A DNA stretch of 32,000 nt from contig JAIZWK010000001.1 in the NCBI GenBank assembly GCA_021498095.1, forward strand, positions 330,001-362,000, in the 5' to 3' direction. The DNA is from Candidatus Harpocratesius repetitus (GTDB lineage: Archaea > Asgardarchaeota > Lokiarchaeia > Sigyniarchaeales > Promethearchaeaceae). The position numbers were made by a program, and so were the translations under genes. A model generated the notes under the pieces. It ran no database searches. It was not told where the DNA came from and was given only the letters and a program-made list of their open reading frames with translations. Of the stretch, positions 11,331-16,601 are shown piece after piece (positions within the stretch are counted from its first letter, which is position 1; each line of letters begins with the position of its first letter).

Positions 11331-12440
11331 ATGTTTGAATATCCCCCAAATATGGCTCAAAGTTGCGCAGAACTATATAAATTAAACCCAGCAAAATATC
11401 AAAGATTTCCTGAAGAAAATAATTGCTTTATGCGAGCATTATATGATTTGAAATTTCCTTCATTTGGATTAGATTTGGTTTCAAATATGACAAAATTAGT
11501 TGATTCAGGAGAACCTGGTTATTCACGATTAGATCTTGCACTTTATGCAGCCAGTTGGACAATTGATCAACATATGCCTTTTGCATCTAAATGGAATCCA
11601 AAACCATCAGATAATGATTATATTCCAAAAGAAGTGGTTCTTCGCCCACCAGATCCAATCCCACCCAATGAACTTACAAAATATGTTAAAAGAGCTGCAA
11701 AATTTTTCGGAGCGTGCGATGTGGGAATTACAAAGATAGATTATAATTGGATATTGAAAAATACAGCCAAAGTTGCAGGAACTAGCAATATCGATGGGAA
11801 GCAAATTGCAAAGATAAAAAAGTCACCAATTGAATTACCATCTGATGTTACAAATGCAATAATAATTGCAATTGAGATGGATCCTTCAGGAATTCAATGT
11901 GCGCCTAAATTTTTAGAAACGGCTTCAGTCGGGTGGGGTTATTCGCAAATGACTGCGATCAGTGTGACTATCGCACAGTTCATCCGAAATCTTGGTTATT
12001 TTGCAATTCCTTCTACTAATGATACAGGATTATCCATTCCTCTAGCAATTGATGCAGGTTTAGGAGCTCAAGGAAGAAATGGGTTACTAATAACTAAGAA
12101 ATGGGGACCGCGAGTTCGCTTGTGTAAAGTCTTTACGAATATGCCGCTAATTTATGATTCTCCAGATGTTGCGTTTCTAAAAAAAATTAACGCATACTGC
12201 AAAAGATGTCGACGATGTGCCGAAGCATGTGAAGCTGAAGCAATTTCATTTGATGATGAGCCATCAACTCAACCAAAATGCTCTTCTAACAATCCTGGTG
12301 TAAAAAAATGGTATGTAAATACTAATGCTTGTTATGGAATTTGGGTAAAACATTCCACCGATTGCGGTAACTGTATTCAGGTATGCCCCTTTTCAAAAAC
12401 CCCAGAAAAAATTAGTTCAGAAGATTTTTGGAATCTTTAA
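11331..12440 (+). CDS. rdhA: Reductive dehalogenase-like cobalamin / 2x[4Fe-4S] enzyme (RdhA family, no TAT signal)
   Basis: AGLGAQGRNGLLITKKWGPRVRLCKVFTNMPL; CKRCRRCAEACEA and C...DCGNCIQVCPF Fe-S motifs; no RRxFLK signal and no adjacent rdhB. Confidence 0.85.
   Translation: MFEYPPNMAQSCAELYKLNPAKYQRFPEENNCFMRALYDLKFPSFGLDLVSNMTKLVDSGEPGYSRLDLALYAASWTIDQHMPFASKWNPKPSDNDYIPKEVVLRPPDPIPPNELTKYVKRAAKFFGACDVGITKIDYNWILKNTAKVAGTSNIDGKQIAKIKKSPIELPSDVTNAIIIAIEMDPSGIQCAPKFLETASVGWGYSQMTAISVTIAQFIRNLGYFAIPSTNDTGLSIPLAIDAGLGAQGRNGLLITKKWGPRVRLCKVFTNMPLIYDSPDVAFLKKINAYCKRCRRCAEACEAEAISFDDEPSTQPKCSSNNPGVKKWYVNTNACYGIWVKHSTDCGNCIQVCPFSKTPEKISSEDFWNL
12390..12440 (+). repeat. Direct repeat copy 1 (last 51 bp of rdhA)
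   Basis: 48/51 identical to 14019-14069. Confidence 0.95.
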
Positions 12441-12790
12441 TAAACGTATCCGTAGCAAAAATTTTTTTTGATCATATATTATTACATATCATTTGATTTG
12501 TATAGATTTTTATCTTTATTAACCTCATGCTTATTATTTCATAAACTACCGCAATATTCAACGTTACACCTTGAATTTTGCTTGAATTACGACAGTAAAA
12601 ACGGCGACACCTTGTCCAATATTAATATAGTCGTAGTAATTTATATCAAATAATAACTAATCTTCATGATTTTATGCATGTCCTAATAGAAAAATAGTGA
12701 TATCTTAAAAATGACCCCTATTTGATAGGTAATTGCTTTTAGAATAACTTAATTTGAATGAATTTATATAATAACTATAGTGAGTATATA

Positions 12791-13018
12791 ATGTCTGATA
12801 AAACCACGATACAAATTAAAAAAACATCTTTGGAATTGCTTAAGCAACAAAAATCTCATCCTCGGGAAACTTATGATGAAGTAATTCGCCATTTAATTGC
12901 ATTTTATACAAATTCAAAAAAAAATAACCAATATGATGAATTTCTGCATAAAATCCAGCAGATGAAAATGAAAGAACTTTGGGATAATGATGAGGATGCC
13001 GCGTGGGAAAACTACTAA
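12791..13018 (+). CDS. Antitoxin (archaeal RHH-like N-terminus, acidic LWDNxED-type tail)
   Basis: TTIQIKKTSLELLKQQK...ETYDEVIRHL; MKELWDNDEDAAWENY; overlaps the toxin start. ATG 12791 preferred over the track start 12758. Confidence 0.7.
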   Translation: MSDKTTIQIKKTSLELLKQQKSHPRETYDEVIRHLIAFYTNSKKNNQYDEFLHKIQQMKMKELWDNDEDAAWENY

Positions 13019-13400
13019 AAAAAAAAGAAGTGATAACGATTCATTTTGCTCTGGGGATGTCATTTTAGCAACAATCCAATTTACAGATACCGCTGAAATA
13101 AAAATTCGACCTGCAGTTGTTCTTTTTGGAGAATTTGATAATTTAGTTATCGCTGGAATAACAAGTAATACAAATATGGAGGGGATTCCCTTGAGTATTG
13201 AAGAGGGTGCAATTAAACCAAGCGTTATTAAATTAAACTATATTTTTACTATTTCTACTATTATGGTACGGCGGAAGCTCTTTTCTCTTTCACGATCAAA
13301 AAAATTACAGATTTATAATGCCTTGCTTGAGAAACTTTCATCACTTTCACAAGTAAAAAAAAAGCAGATCTTAGTTAACAAGGAAGATATGGAAATCTAA
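12987..13400 (+). CDS. MazF/PemK-family endoribonuclease toxin
   Basis: GDVILATIQFTD...KIRPAVVL...VIAGITS...KPSVIKLNYIFTI matches the PemK pattern; start could be 12987, 12990 or 12996. Confidence 0.8.
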   Translation: MMRMPRGKTTKKKRSDNDSFCSGDVILATIQFTDTAEIKIRPAVVLFGEFDNLVIAGITSNTNMEGIPLSIEEGAIKPSVIKLNYIFTISTIMVRRKLFSLSRSKKLQIYNALLEKLSSLSQVKKKQILVNKEDMEI

Positions 13401-13661
13401 TTACACCACATTTTGGCGCTAGACAAAGATTGGAACCTATTTTTATCCAAGATAAGATTTTTGATAATACTGATTTTTGATTATACTGATGATGAAGAGC
13501 AAAATTGGATTGAGAATTATTGCGAAACTTGTGGATTATGCCAAAAATCCTGTTCTGCTCAAGTGATATATTCTCAAAAAATTGTTAAAATAGAGAATGT
13601 TGCTGGAATTGGATCTATACAAACTTGCGTTGATCATGATAAATATTTTCCATATGTGTAA
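13364..13661 (+). pseudogene. Decayed RdhA/QueG-family cobalamin-Fe-S gene fragment
   Basis: The frame from 13364 reads ADLS*QGRYGNLITPHFGARQRL (cf. AGLGAQGRNGLLITKKWGPRVRL in rdhA), stops at 13478, then shifts at a T run into YCETCGLCQKSCSAQ with eroded Cys/Pro positions. Confidence 0.75.
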
Positions 13662-13930
13662 GCATTATTGACCGTCTCGATGATTGCGGAAATTATTATC
13701 CGTCACATCTTGATGGAGTTCTTTCTTTCGGGGCTGTAGATTACAACCATAAACAATTGTATTCCAACGACTATCATGCATCAAATTACGGCAAAGATAT
13801 TTTTACCACAACGTACACTAATGACAAATACAGCACTTTTACGGATAAAAGTTATACTCATGACTTTGGAGAACGCGTGGGAATGATGGCGACTCCAATC
13901 CCAAAGATTGGGACTCGAAAGCATCCGTAG
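13643..13930 (+). pseudogene. Possible subtilase (S8)-like fragment without a start codon
   Basis: Open frame reads ...GNYYPSHLDGVLSFGAVD...SNYGKDIF...GMMATP, resembling subtilase YPA..V..VGAVD...SNYG...GTSMATP with the catalytic Ser motif degenerate. Confidence 0.4.
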
Positions 13931-14018
13931 GAATGTACCGAAACCTTTAACCCTCGATTGGTGTAGGGCGACCTAGTAAAATTCAAAGGCTAATTAACAT
14001 GAACTCGGGTTTGAAGCA

Positions 14019-14069
14019 TTTTCAAAAACTCCAGAGAAAATTACTTCAGAAGATTTTTGGAATCTTTAA
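14019..14069 (+). repeat. Direct repeat copy 2 (rdhA 3' end variant, FSKTPEKITSEDFWNL*)
   Basis: 48/51 identical to 12390-12440; two differences are synonymous and one is S to T. Confidence 0.95.
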
Positions 14070-14486
14070 GAAAATTAAAAAGATATTTCTATTTTGTGAT
14101 TTATTATATTGTAAACAAAAAGAATAAAAATGTAATGGGATGGTCTTTTTTTGTTATACTTTTAAAATATTATTTAAATTTTAGAAAATACATCTAAAAA
14201 TATGAATTTTACCTCGATCTAGCGAAAAATACCACATCTAATTGTAATTGGATTTAGAATAAAAAGCCTCCATAACATTTTTAAGTATAATAAAGAATAG
14301 ATTTCTTACATAATCAATTTCAGCAATCAGATTGATTTAGGAAACAAAATATGAAAATAAAGAATTATTTTGGAAAACTAAATAATATTTTTCAAAATTT
14401 TCAAGGTGATTTTGCTTCCCAATCATACCTTACACAAGTTTCATGATTGTTAAAACTTTATTGAATAATATAAAGAAGGAAGAATT

Positions 14487-14864
14487 TTGAGCCGCTTAGA
14501 AGAAGCTAAAAAAATTTTAGAAGAACTGCATGATCGAGCCCCTGATCTTGAAGAATTGGCTTTAGCACGAACAAATGGATTGATCATTGTTTCTTTGCGA
14601 AAATCTATAAATCAAGATAAAAAATCAGAACGGTTACTCGGTGCAATGGCATCTGCATTATTTAGTATATCAAAACGTGCAGCTGGAGAATTATTAAAAG
14701 GAAATTTCCAATCGATTAATGTTGAAATCGATAAAGGCAATATCTTTCTTATCTTTACAGGAAAAGTTATTTTAATAACGCTCACAAAACCAGAACCAAA
14801 TTTAGGATTAATTAGCTTAGAATTAGAAGATGCCGCTAAGAAATTAAATAAGATATTTTCATGA
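14487..14864 (+). CDS. Roadblock/LC7 (MglB-like) domain protein
   Basis: LALARTNGLIIVS...LLGAMASALFSISKRAAGEL..G.FQSINVEIDKGNIFL is a classic roadblock pattern. Confidence 0.9.
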   Translation: MSRLEEAKKILEELHDRAPDLEELALARTNGLIIVSLRKSINQDKKSERLLGAMASALFSISKRAAGELLKGNFQSINVEIDKGNIFLIFTGKVILITLTKPEPNLGLISLELEDAAKKLNKIFS

Positions 14865-14867
14865 GAT

Positions 14868-14873
14868 AGGTGA
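14868..14873 (+). promoter_or_regulatory. Shine-Dalgarno AGGTGA for the TTG start at 14880
   Basis: AGGTGA lies 6 nt before TTG. Confidence 0.6.
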
Positions 14874-14879
14874 TTTAAA

Positions 14880-15350
14880 TTGAGTAGAAAAAATAATCGA
14901 TTAAATCAATTAAAGTTCATCAGCAATATATTTCAAATGAGTTTGAAAGAAATAAAAGACACATTAGGATTTGAGACTTTAACAATGATTTTCCGTCGTG
15001 TTGGAGAAGCAGCTGCAGATTTAATGGTTCCAAAATTGGAAGGAAAATATTCAACAATGGATGAATTCGCAAATTTATTAATAACTTATATTGTTGAGCC
15101 TATTTTAGGACCAAATCAAGGAAAAATTCAAATTAATGAGAATAAAATTGATATCCAGCTGAATGCATGCCCTTACAAAAGAGCAGGGCATTTTCCAATT
15201 CAAGATATGGACTTTTTCTGCCATTATACAGAGGGTCTTTTTGATCAGGCATTTAAGCTGGCTTTTCCAGATAAAAATTTTGATATGGAAGCCAAAGAAC
15301 TTATAGCAAAAGGATGCAAACACTGCATCTTTGAAGCAGAATTTATTTAA
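14880..15350 (+). CDS. V4R / H-NOX-Bet3-like fold protein (methanogen output domain-like)
   Basis: IFRRVGEAAA...IQLNACPY...FFCHYTEGLFDQAF...LIAKGCKHCIFE with the V4R Cys pattern. Confidence 0.75.
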   Translation: MSRKNNRLNQLKFISNIFQMSLKEIKDTLGFETLTMIFRRVGEAAADLMVPKLEGKYSTMDEFANLLITYIVEPILGPNQGKIQINENKIDIQLNACPYKRAGHFPIQDMDFFCHYTEGLFDQAFKLAFPDKNFDMEAKELIAKGCKHCIFEAEFI

Positions 15351-15393
15351 AATTGAAATACAATTCTTTTTTTATTATAGTGAGGCAATTTTC

Positions 15394-15843
15394 ATGGGAA
15401 TTCTTTCAAGACTATTTCCAAAACAAGAACAAGAAGCGTTAAAGCGCTTGGAACAACAATTTGAAGATACATTAAATAAATCTAAGTCAAAATTTATTTG
15501 TTTAGTGGGAATTAAAGGTAAGATTAAAGGATTAGACATAATATATGTAAATGAATCAAAAATTGACTTTGATAAAAAAGAGATGCAGAAGATAAATGGC
15601 AGACTAGTAGAATTATATTTAAGATACCAAAGTTTAGCTTTTAGCCGCAATGAGGATTCATCTCCATTACAAACAATAATTTATTATTTTAATAAAAATG
15701 ATCAGATTTGTATTTTTTTAATCGAAGGTAATGATAAATTTATTATAACGGCTCAAACATCGAATCCTTCGAAGATTCTAAAGGATCTTATAAAGATTCG
15801 TATTGAATTATTCAAATTACGATTAGAGCGAGAGGGTTTTTGA
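15394..15843 (+). CDS. Divergent roadblock/profilin-like fold protein
   Basis: ATG 15394 follows GTGAGG; helix, FICLVG strand, helix, three strands, helix topology. The fold call is inferred. Confidence 0.6.
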   Translation: MGILSRLFPKQEQEALKRLEQQFEDTLNKSKSKFICLVGIKGKIKGLDIIYVNESKIDFDKKEMQKINGRLVELYLRYQSLAFSRNEDSSPLQTIIYYFNKNDQICIFLIEGNDKFIITAQTSNPSKILKDLIKIRIELFKLRLEREGF

Positions 15844-16601
15844 TGAAAAACTATTGTTTATATATTGTCCAAACTTCAGGAGTACCTATTTATTATCAGA
15901 ATTTTTCTGAGGAATTTCAAAACTCAGAATATCCTCTAGTTACATCTTTTTTTGGAGCAATAATGCAATTTTCGCAGCAGGTGATTAAAGAACAATTAAA
16001 TATTATTGAAATTGGCAAATATCGTATTTTTTTCCGATATCAACAAGATTTAATTTTTATTATTATCACAGAAAATACATCTTCTATTTTATTGATAAAT
16101 GAACGGTTAGATCGAATTGTATTAACACTTTATAATTATATCAATGTTGAAAAAGTAATAGAATCAAAGCAAATGCTTGAAAATCCAGAAATATCGGAGA
16201 AATTTTATAAAATAATGCACCTGCAAGATGATTATTCCGATTTAAAGACAGAAGTTATAAAAAATCTAGTTGAAAGTGAAATTGCATCAGGAGATGTGGA
16301 AGCGGGTGCATTATTATCACTAAAAGGTGAGATATTCTATTCATCATTACCTTTAGAAGAACTTCATATTGCATTACGAGAAATAGAAATTAGAACAATG
16401 GTTGGTTCACAAGATATTATTCATGGTGAGAAATTTATACGACAAAATGAAAATAATGCTATTTTTTCGAAAACTATTTTCATTCCTGCACTTTCAAGAC
16501 AAGTGTATATTGTTCTACTTTTTGATAATAGAGTTAATTTAGGGATGGCTGATTTCTTGTTAGATGAAATCTGTCAAAAATTAGAAAAAATTGATTTATA
16601 A
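15840..16601 (+). CDS. Longin plus roadblock-like two-domain protein
   Basis: N-terminal LYIVQTSGVPIYY...LVTSFFGAIMQFSQQV...IIEIGKYRIFF (longin); C-terminal VEAGALLSLKGEIFYSSLP (roadblock-like); 4-bp overlap with the upstream gene. Confidence 0.7.
   Translation: MMKNYCLYIVQTSGVPIYYQNFSEEFQNSEYPLVTSFFGAIMQFSQQVIKEQLNIIEIGKYRIFFRYQQDLIFIIITENTSSILLINERLDRIVLTLYNYINVEKVIESKQMLENPEISEKFYKIMHLQDDYSDLKTEVIKNLVESEIASGDVEAGALLSLKGEIFYSSLPLEELHIALREIEIRTMVGSQDIIHGEKFIRQNENNAIFSKTIFIPALSRQVYIVLLFDNRVNLGMADFLLDEICQKLEKIDL

Follow-up and report, generated by a model that had tools for sequence, protein, structure and literature searches.

Within a stretch of 32,000 nucleotides from Candidatus Harpocratesius repetitus, a Loki-type Asgard archaeon placed in the family Promethearchaeaceae, hereafter the window (contig JAIZWK010000001.1, positions 330,001 to 362,000), four co-directional genes on the plus strand at 14487-16601, termed g1 to g4, very probably constitute a discrete, co-inherited four-protein module. 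The predicted products are a Roadblock/LC7 protein, a V4R-like protein with a cluster of four cysteines, a second protein of roadblock fold and a protein joining a longin to a roadblock domain. In our preferred reading, to which we assign a probability of about one half, these proteins would form a roadblock/longin platform with a V4R-like subunit, acting on a GTPase whose gene lies at another place in the genome.

Conservation, gene orders and movement of the cassette

The genes were delimited from the open reading frame (ORF) listing together with direct reading of the sequence, in a region whose GC content is 27-29%:

g1, 14487-14864, plus strand: TTG start, 125 amino acids (aa), Roadblock/LC7 protein
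g2, 14880-15350, plus strand: TTG start, 156 aa, putative V4R/HNOB/MetOD1-superfamily protein with a four-Cys cluster
g3, 15394-15843, plus strand: ATG start, 149 aa, protein of predicted roadblock fold without a Pfam family
g4, 15840 (TTG start) or 15843 (ATG start) to 16601, plus strand: 253 or 252 aa, predicted longin plus roadblock protein

The genes are packed tightly, in the manner of an operon. The intergenic gaps measure 15 bp (g1-g2) and 43 bp (g2-g3), and the g3/g4 junction reads TTGATG, giving an overlap of 4 bp with the TTG start of g4 or of 1 bp (TGATG) with the ATG start, the latter being preferred by the homologues and by the database protein. An earlier note on this DNA, which had described four co-oriented genes with 15- and 43-bp gaps and a 4-bp overlap, was therefore right as to coordinates and spacing, the overlap being 1 bp if the ATG is used. 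A longer TTG ORF for g3, starting at 15331, was rejected, as the homologues all begin with MG.

Gene-order conservation across Asgard genomes, on which the earlier note had staked its proposal, was indeed found. In what follows, G000 denotes the window's own genome (closed, 4.36 Mb; the window is G000:C1:330001-362000), other G labels denote related genomes, L labels loci, and f and g numbers families and genera, with g4' and g3' standing for the module's longin-roadblock and roadblock-fold genes in the g1-g2-g4'-g3' arrangement. All four families occur together in 23 of the 25 loci first examined. The g1-g2-g3-g4 order of the window is shared by L001-L003 (contigs from metagenomes or metagenome-assembled genomes), G137, G130 and G282, and by G143, which carries an extra g2 copy upstream; in G138, g3 and g4 stand alone on a short contig. 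Family f3 has the second order, g1-g2-g4'-g3', in 18 loci; its variants show a 2-kb insertion between g2 and g4', the loss of g4' or, in genus g18 of the same family, an additional, inverted longin-roadblock gene that separates g2 from g3'. A search with the g2 profile extended this order to families f5-f7 of the same class, where 6 of 7 genomes have the module. Three of these loci, L119, L121 and L122 (G128, G124 and G125), show a tandemly duplicated g1-g2 pair, laid out as g1-g2-g4'-g3'-g1-g2 or g1-g2-g1-g2-g4'-g3'. In another class, the module is reduced: the 5 genomes of family f20 all keep g1-g2, accompanied by a convergent gene for a longin-only protein. Family f21 has g2 alone. The g1-g2 pair is kept in 36 loci from at least six families, g1 always lying directly upstream of g2, and because of this conservation the adjacency goes beyond chance. 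No flanking gene family is common to the different arrangements. Within the order, a search with the g3 profile found the family in 29 of 154 genomes, belonging to 17 of 24 genera.

The longin-roadblock position of the cassette is occupied by more than one paralogue. A quick maximum-likelihood tree (IQ-TREE) was calculated for 54 longin-roadblock proteins, comprising every ORF with a match over 190 or more of the 250 profile positions from the window, L001-3, L037, L010-33, L065-84 and L118-123 and excluding L004-L009 and the f20 longin-only proteins; the tree is unrooted and was midpoint-rooted for drawing only. Two deep groups were recovered with 100% support in the Shimodaira-Hasegawa-like approximate likelihood ratio test (SH-aLRT), one of them formed by the in-module g4' proteins of f3 and f5-f7 and the other by the window-type g4, a stand-alone f3 gene and the inverted g18 copies. 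None of the 135 f3 genomes lacks this stand-alone gene, whose neighbours are a GNAT gene on one side and an M48 protease gene on the other. Depending on the lineage, the longin-roadblock slot is therefore filled by one or the other of two different paralogues. The group-two paralogue adjoins g3 in two separate contexts, the in-module copy of genus g18 being placed separately from the g4 of the window. No direction of paralogue change is claimed, because the tree is unrooted.

In addition to these rearrangements, the cassette has been relocated as a whole. Its neighbours in L001, L002 and G137 are a FAD-oxidoreductase gene on one side and, on the other, a five-gene array, preceded by the cassette and encoding an S8 protease, a YdjM protein, a Complex1_49kDa-like protein and two large proteins, the last two being paralogues of each other. 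Their orthologues in G000, with identities of 80% and 33-72%, stand back to back at 4271390-4280897, with no room between them, and the cassette is found at 0.34 Mb, 3.9 Mb away from this FAD-oxidoreductase/S8-array site (4.27 Mb), now between a MazF-type toxin-antitoxin insertion and two convergent bPH_2 genes.

Fold and family assignments of the four proteins

The four fold or domain calls made previously from the letters of the sequence were borne out, with g2 assigned at superfamily level. The features on which the following paragraphs draw are:

g2 Cys-cluster span, 15168-15326, plus strand: C97 (15168), C114 (15219), C146 (15315) and C149 (15324)
g3 N-terminal motif, 15394-15426, plus strand: MGILSRLFPKQ, preceding the first roadblock helix
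g4 N-terminal longin domain (predicted), 15843-16232, plus strand: residues 1-130, numbered from the ATG start (15843)
g4 C-terminal roadblock domain (predicted), 16242-16601, plus strand: residues 134-252 plus the stop codon

The AlphaFold2 (AF2) model of g4, with a predicted local distance difference test score (pLDDT) of 91, consists of two domains. In the model, residues 1-130 adopt the longin fold, and superposition with VIA-align places them close to the TRAPP subunit Trs23 (3cue_A; Z 14.4, root-mean-square deviation (rmsd) 2.6, 124 residues aligned), the VAMP7 longin (Z 14.2) and the adaptin sigma and mu chains (Z 12-13.5). The best sequence family is Pfam Fuz_longin_1, at 24.3 bits and below its cut-off of 26.1; three relatives have a precomputed PF19036 match. 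The g4 profile reaches the first longin domain (LD1) of Mon1 at about 1e-3, with Mon1 AGKPIF aligned to g4 SGVPIY, and the same Mon1 segment aligns with a G-x-P turn that, together with an invariant glycine, lies ahead of strand 2. G13 of the longin is invariant in 40 of 40 sequences. An assignment of g4 to the longins of GTPase-activating protein (GAP) type, defined by a GP motif and an arginine finger (PMC12290439), was considered and rejected, with P15 present in 16 of 40 relatives and R61 replaced by lysine in 11 of 40.

The C-terminal domain of g4 is predicted to be a roadblock, its best VIA-align counterparts being MP1/p14 (2zl1_B, Z 14.0), a roadblock protein of MK-D1 (7yh1_D, Z 13.6) and MglB (Z 13.0), and the g4 profile matches MK-D1 Roadblock3 over this domain at 2e-4. 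When the whole chain was submitted to Foldseek, the top 20 matches were all subunits of the tri-longin GEFs (guanine-nucleotide exchange factors) of Rab GTPases, namely Mon1/Ccz1, Fuzzy/Inturned and BLOC-3 (E 4e-9 to 2e-5). In this regard, the likeness to longin/roadblock GTPase regulators to which the earlier note had pointed is a reasonable one.

The g3 protein has no Pfam match, and we consequently place it among roadblock-fold proteins by its modelled fold alone. The AF2 model, built on a 28-sequence alignment, has a pLDDT of 86.8 and a predicted template modelling score (pTM) of 0.82, with elements in the order alpha-beta-beta-alpha-beta-beta-beta-alpha. Foldseek matched it to the C-terminal roadblock domain of RagA (2e-6) and also to MglB. 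The best VIA-align matches include MglB (3t1r_A; Z 14.7, rmsd 2.5, 125 residues aligned), the Gtr C-terminal domain (Z 13.0) and LAMTOR subunits, and the comparison also reaches the C-terminal part of Mon1 (9rs7_A, residues 363-518) at Z of about 10.

The most conserved part of g3 is its N-terminus, for which the motif MG(I/F)LS(K/R)(I/L)F can be written. The start MG is found in 20 of 28 family members, followed by the pattern hydrophobic-hydrophobic-S/T-K/R-hydrophobic, e.g., MGFLSKIFGKKE, and this segment is far better conserved than the remainder of a family whose overall identity is 20-30%. The strict motif occurs at one further ORF start in G000, that of a 102-aa TTG ORF of doubtful reality. 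In the model, the N-terminus has a low pLDDT of 59. The idea that it forms a statistically distinctive amphipathic helix was discarded, as its hydrophobic moment of 0.39 is equalled by 30% of shuffled sequences and by the g1 N-terminus. We take the segment MGFLSKIFGKKE to resemble the N-termini of Arf/Arl proteins, and its MG motif presumably recalls LAMTOR1, a lipidated anchor. No convincing N-myristoyltransferase (NMT) was found in G000, the sole match being a 362-aa GNAT-type protein (G000:C1:4124428-4125516; L133:1429-2517), which scores 22-23 bits against the NMT N-terminal domain, with a cut-off of 25, and is insufficient for an NMT call. The N-terminal helices of Asgard Arf proteins have been shown to bind membranes without myristoylation (Zhu et al., PMC11914678). 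The g3 N-terminus may serve membrane or partner binding.

Regarding g1, the protein passes the Pfam Robl_LC7 family (PF03259) at 2.8e-7 and 30.6 bits, with a cut-off of 23, and its family profile (A6) matches MK-D1 Roadblock3 (9jue, 6e-17), a Thor roadblock protein (7f8m, 7.5e-16) and MglB (about 1e-4).

The assignment of g2 draws on sequence families. The window protein matches Pfam MetOD1 at 1.7e-4, just under the cut-off; among its relatives, 18 of 25 match MetOD1 (best 1.5e-7) and 10 of 25 match ATC_hydrolase. A language-model look-up returned DUF6125, ATC_hydrolase, TRAPP and V4R as the nearest Atlas clusters, a TRAPP-named cluster standing at rank 36 with a score of 0.89. Pfam scans of the window protein and 24 relatives gave no match to V4R (PF02830) and none to TRAPP Bet3 (PF04051), and a sequence search of the PDB with the g2 profile returned nothing meaningful. 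In hhalign comparisons with the V4R proteins of G000 itself, the matches were weak (E 2e-4 and 7e-3), with the Cys positions aligned. By these sequence criteria, the nearest kin of g2 appear to be MetOD1, DUF6125 and ATC_hydrolase, with V4R proper and Bet3/TRAPP more distant. The V4R identity proposed earlier for g2 stands at the level of the superfamily.

All four cysteines of g2 (C97, C114, C146 and C149) belong to the conserved cluster. Across the family (alignment A5), C97 and C149 are invariant and C114 nearly so, and the fourth Cys is at position 146, 147 or 148 depending on the clade. It has been reported that four Cys in the corresponding position bind zinc in Thor-TRAPPC3 and PoxR (Tran et al. 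2024, PMC10933270), and that MetOD1 is related to HNOB, V4R and ATC hydrolase, a conserved Cys cluster being common to MetOD1 and V4R (Galperin et al., PMC5847659). Because the g2 cysteines match both the zinc site of Thor-TRAPPC3/PoxR and the MetOD1/V4R cluster, they are most simply read as a putative structural Zn(Cys)4-type site. The earlier note had assigned a redox- or metal-sensing role to these residues; the cluster is conserved as supposed, and the sensing role gives way to this simpler reading.

Genomic setting of the cassette

Upstream of g1 lies a non-coding stretch that presumably holds the g1 promoter:

AT-rich non-coding stretch, 14074-14486, plus strand: no ORF of 50 aa or more; GC 0.27

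A sigma-70 promoter scan yielded fewer sites than in shuffled sequence, and the sigma-70 model is irrelevant to an archaeon. The sequencing runs listed as containing this part of the genome are all of DNA, one of them probably the source sample, and none of RNA is listed. The stretch begins right after the second copy of a 55-nt direct repeat (12390-12444 and 14019-14073, 93% identical), which closes a toxin-antitoxin cassette. The repeat is the duplicated 3' end of a Fer4-containing gene (11331-12440), and its two copies bracket a 1.6-kb insert with a DUF7557-like gene and a MazF/PemK-like toxin gene. Accordingly, 12390-14073 has the appearance of an integrated toxin-antitoxin cassette, next to the module on its upstream side; a repeat search revealed no convincing repeats of mobile-element type flanking the four-gene cassette. 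On the other side, two consecutive genes for bPH_2 membrane proteins (16596-18653, minus strand) converge on the four-gene cassette, the first of them (16596-17885, minus strand) overlapping the 3' end of g4 by 6 bp.

Possible function of the cassette and its significance

The cassette resembles several known systems and coincides with none of them. With the tri-longin Rab GEFs (Mon1-Ccz1, Fuzzy-Inturned/CPLANE and HPS1-HPS4/BLOC-3) it shares the succession of a longin and a roadblock-type domain in g4, which corresponds to their LD1-LD2; they provide the best whole-chain Foldseek matches of g4 (E 4e-9 to 1e-6) and, through Fuz_longin_1, its best sequence family, and the commoner order g4' then g3' reads longin, roadblock, roadblock. 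However, the tri-longin subunits have three tandem domains per chain, whereas g4 has two in 252 aa and the third roadblock is a separate gene, upstream of g4 in the window; no fused longin-roadblock-roadblock form was found among the related or longer proteins, which is weak evidence. They also differ in the domain-to-domain arrangement, the rmsd for g4 over the whole chain being about 15-17 A, and the cassette lacks a second tri-longin partner and a linked Rab and has an extra roadblock and a V4R-like subunit.

The TRAPP core (the Bet3 family with the longins Bet5, Trs23 and Trs20) and Thor-TRAPPC3 (PMC10933270) likewise bring together a V4R/Bet3-superfamily protein and a longin; the modelled g4 longin matches Trs23, as described above, and the four-Cys cluster of g2 is like the zinc site of Thor-TRAPPC3. 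TRAPP has no roadblock subunits, however, and g2 matches neither PF04051 nor PF02830. As for Ragulator (LAMTOR1-5) with the Rag GTPases, and for MglB-MglA, the cassette similarly encodes several roadblock-fold subunits together, and g3 and the C-terminal domain of g4 match LAMTOR2/3, the Rag C-terminal domains and MglB with Z of 12-14.7. In contrast to these systems, it has no linked Rag or MglA gene and includes a longin domain and a V4R-like protein; unlike Ragulator it shows no sign of lipidation, the NMT candidate of G000 being the sub-threshold GNAT protein. Finally, an Asgard operon for a LAMTOR1-like roadblock protein, a Rab-like GTPase and a DENN protein has been published (Liu et al. 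preprint, 10.1101/2020.10.19.343400). Like the cassette, it is a conserved Asgard neighbourhood of roadblock-superfamily proteins, interpreted as a GTPase regulator, but it contains a GTPase and DENN, both missing from the cassette, which adds a V4R-like protein and a longin-roadblock fusion.

These comparisons allow us to propose how the cassette might work. It brings together three roadblock domains, one each from g1 and g3 and one from the C-terminal half of g4; a longin, which makes up the N-terminal half of g4; and, as g2, a V4R/MetOD1-superfamily protein with a putative Zn(Cys)4-type site. The roadblock and longin domains might pair through their beta-sheet edges into a hetero-oligomeric platform, as in Ragulator, MglB dimers, Mon1-Ccz1 and TRAPP, with g2 either playing a structural part beside the longin domain, in the manner of Bet3, or providing a small-molecule-binding input. 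Such a platform could bind and regulate, as a GEF, a GAP or a scaffold, one of the approximately 50 Ras-superfamily GTPases encoded elsewhere, and the conserved g3 N-terminus might tether the assembly to a membrane or a partner. A complex prediction with the four chains and their alignments, in which g2 was the scored partner, gave 0.16 against a mark of 0.32; it was run without controls and is counted neither for nor against the proposal.

Several observations weigh against GTPase regulation. Although G000 contains 53 Ras-family matches in its 4.36 Mb, none is in the window, in agreement with the earlier note, the closest to g1 being about 33 kb distant. A P-loop pattern scan over 40 related loci of about 10-12 kb each, with hits backed by Pfam, found Ras-family genes within about 5 kb in 2 loci (L072 and L083), with about 5 expected from the genome-wide density; GTPases are not enriched near the module. 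It is the V4R-like gene, and not a GTPase, that constantly accompanies the roadblock gene. Furthermore, g4 has no strict arginine finger, because longin R61 is replaced by lysine in 11 of 40 relatives; the matches of g2 to V4R proper are weak, its placement in the V4R superfamily coming from sequence families and the Cys pattern; and the module is accessory, since 29 of the 154 genomes in the order have it and both other congeneric genomes lack it. The Bet3 family PF04051 was found nowhere in a sequence search of G000, a result that is uninformative since the control also matched nowhere.

The absence of a GTPase at the module is real and conserved, yet unsurprising. According to Tran et al. 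2024 (PMC10933270), the GTPase genes of MK-D1 generally lie outside the operons that hold roadblock, longin or TRAPPC3 genes, and the 40 loci show no more of them than chance would give, so that the earlier note's view of the missing GTPase as unusual does not hold. Because linked GTPases are not enriched, the connection to GTPase control is one that we infer from the fold families. In this regard, G000 encodes a 287-aa longin-V4R fusion ORF (G000:C1:1449416-1450276; L087:832-1692, plus strand), whose longin part gives a profile match of 1.9e-12 and whose V4R part matches PF02830 at 9.8e-6, below the cut-off. A Heimdall longin-TRAPPC3 fusion and many fusions of longin or roadblock domains to GTPases have been reported (Tran et al., PMC10933270), the latter also in the preprint of Liu et al. 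(10.1101/2020.10.19.343400). Together, the longin-V4R ORF and the published fusions are independent hints that these folds work together.

With respect to the individual loci with GTPases, L072 has two Ras-family genes 2.3-3.5 kb upstream. In L083 (7620-9165; G130), a 177-aa longin-like ORF and a 299-aa fusion of a longin to an Arf-like GTPase (Pfam Arf, 3.2e-16) are divergent from g1 of a window-type module, the fusion being the sole GTPase found directly beside a module; its closest relative in G000 (35% identity) is unlinked, at 2163604-2164518. Elsewhere in G000 (L086, G000:C1:2850229-2852226), a thioredoxin-like gene separates the gene for a stand-alone 158-aa V4R protein (PF02830, 35 bits) from a Ras-family GTPase gene (2851738-2852226) lying about 1.3 kb away, in a neighbourhood unrelated to the cassette.

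A different explanation, which we consider possible but doubtful, is that the cassette works independently of GTPases as a sensing or ligand module, in which the ligand or substrate of g2 would be a small molecule, either hydrophobic or containing sulfur, and the roadblock and longin domains would be generic profilin/GAF-like dimerizing domains that signal to a non-GTPase target or handle a membrane lipid. Such a role would fit the invariant pair of a roadblock and a V4R-like gene, never a GTPase, the function of MetOD1 as an output domain of archaeal response regulators and its kinship to the enzyme ATC hydrolase (PMC5847659), the ATC_hydrolase matches of 10 of 25 g2 relatives, the probable ligand binding of Asgard TRAPP/V4R proteins (Tran et al., PMC10933270) and the presence of GAF domains among the structural matches of g3 (Z 8-9.6). 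However, the closest whole-chain matches of g4 are Rab GEF subunits, Asgard genomes show recurrent fusions of longin and roadblock domains to GTPases (PMC10933270; Liu et al. 10.1101/2020.10.19.343400), and one such fusion, to an Arf-like GTPase, lies divergently beside the module in L083. On the side of GTPase control, a more elaborate proposal strikes us as improbable, namely that the cassette encodes a membrane-tethered hybrid GEF, made of a split Mon1/Fuzzy-like unit in which the longin-roadblock protein is complemented by a separate roadblock, a Bet3-superfamily subunit and a further roadblock, with the g3 N-terminus as anchor, and that it is a living relative of a stage before TRAPP-, tri-longin- and Ragulator-type regulators separated.

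Recruitment of V4R and profilin/longin-like domains into prokaryotic immunity has been proposed, in association with ParA (2026 preprint, 10.64898/2026.10.19.760177), and an accessory conflict or defence-type module would account for the patchy distribution of the cassette and its absence from congeners, for its relocation as a unit and for its position in the window, directly beside a MazF-type toxin-antitoxin insert bracketed by 55-nt repeats. We nevertheless hold this very unlikely: none of the 40 loci contains an effector, nuclease, ParA, winged helix-turn-helix or other immune-type domain, the one match from PADLOC, a single Cas2 at 0.006, is not meaningful, the flanks are ordinary metabolic genes that differ between lineages, and the proteins are well conserved rather than fast-evolving (identity across families of 45-50% for g1 and 31-38% for g2). 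As regards a fortuitous adjacency of four unrelated small genes, G000 does abound in paralogues of these families, its longin-like ORFs numbering at least 35 and its roadblock-like ones about 9, which makes chance neighbours conceivable; but it has no close paralogue of g2 or g3, the cassette has moved as a block, and the four families recur together in nearly all the loci first examined and in further orders, without a common flanking family. Chance is thereby effectively refuted by synteny. We thus retain a roadblock/longin platform acting on a GTPase encoded elsewhere as the preferred reading of the cassette.

The literature covers the individual protein families and other Asgard operons, and we found in it no description of this cassette. 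Longin, roadblock, V4R and small-GTPase genes number in the dozens in Asgard genomes and are rarely linked to one another (PMC10933270; Liu et al. 10.1101/2020.10.19.343400), and because of this, working partners among these proteins cannot be assigned. The cassette is a conserved exception, in which four named proteins have been inherited, rearranged and moved together. It encodes look-alikes of parts of the platforms that control small GTPases in eukaryotes and gives a concrete set of partners, with which a TRAPP-, Mon1-Ccz1- or Ragulator-like assembly by Asgard longin, roadblock and V4R proteins becomes testable. Should the module prove to be a regulator of GTPases, it would bear on the origin of the eukaryotic trafficking regulators; should it not, it would be a caution against reading GTPase control from these folds alone.

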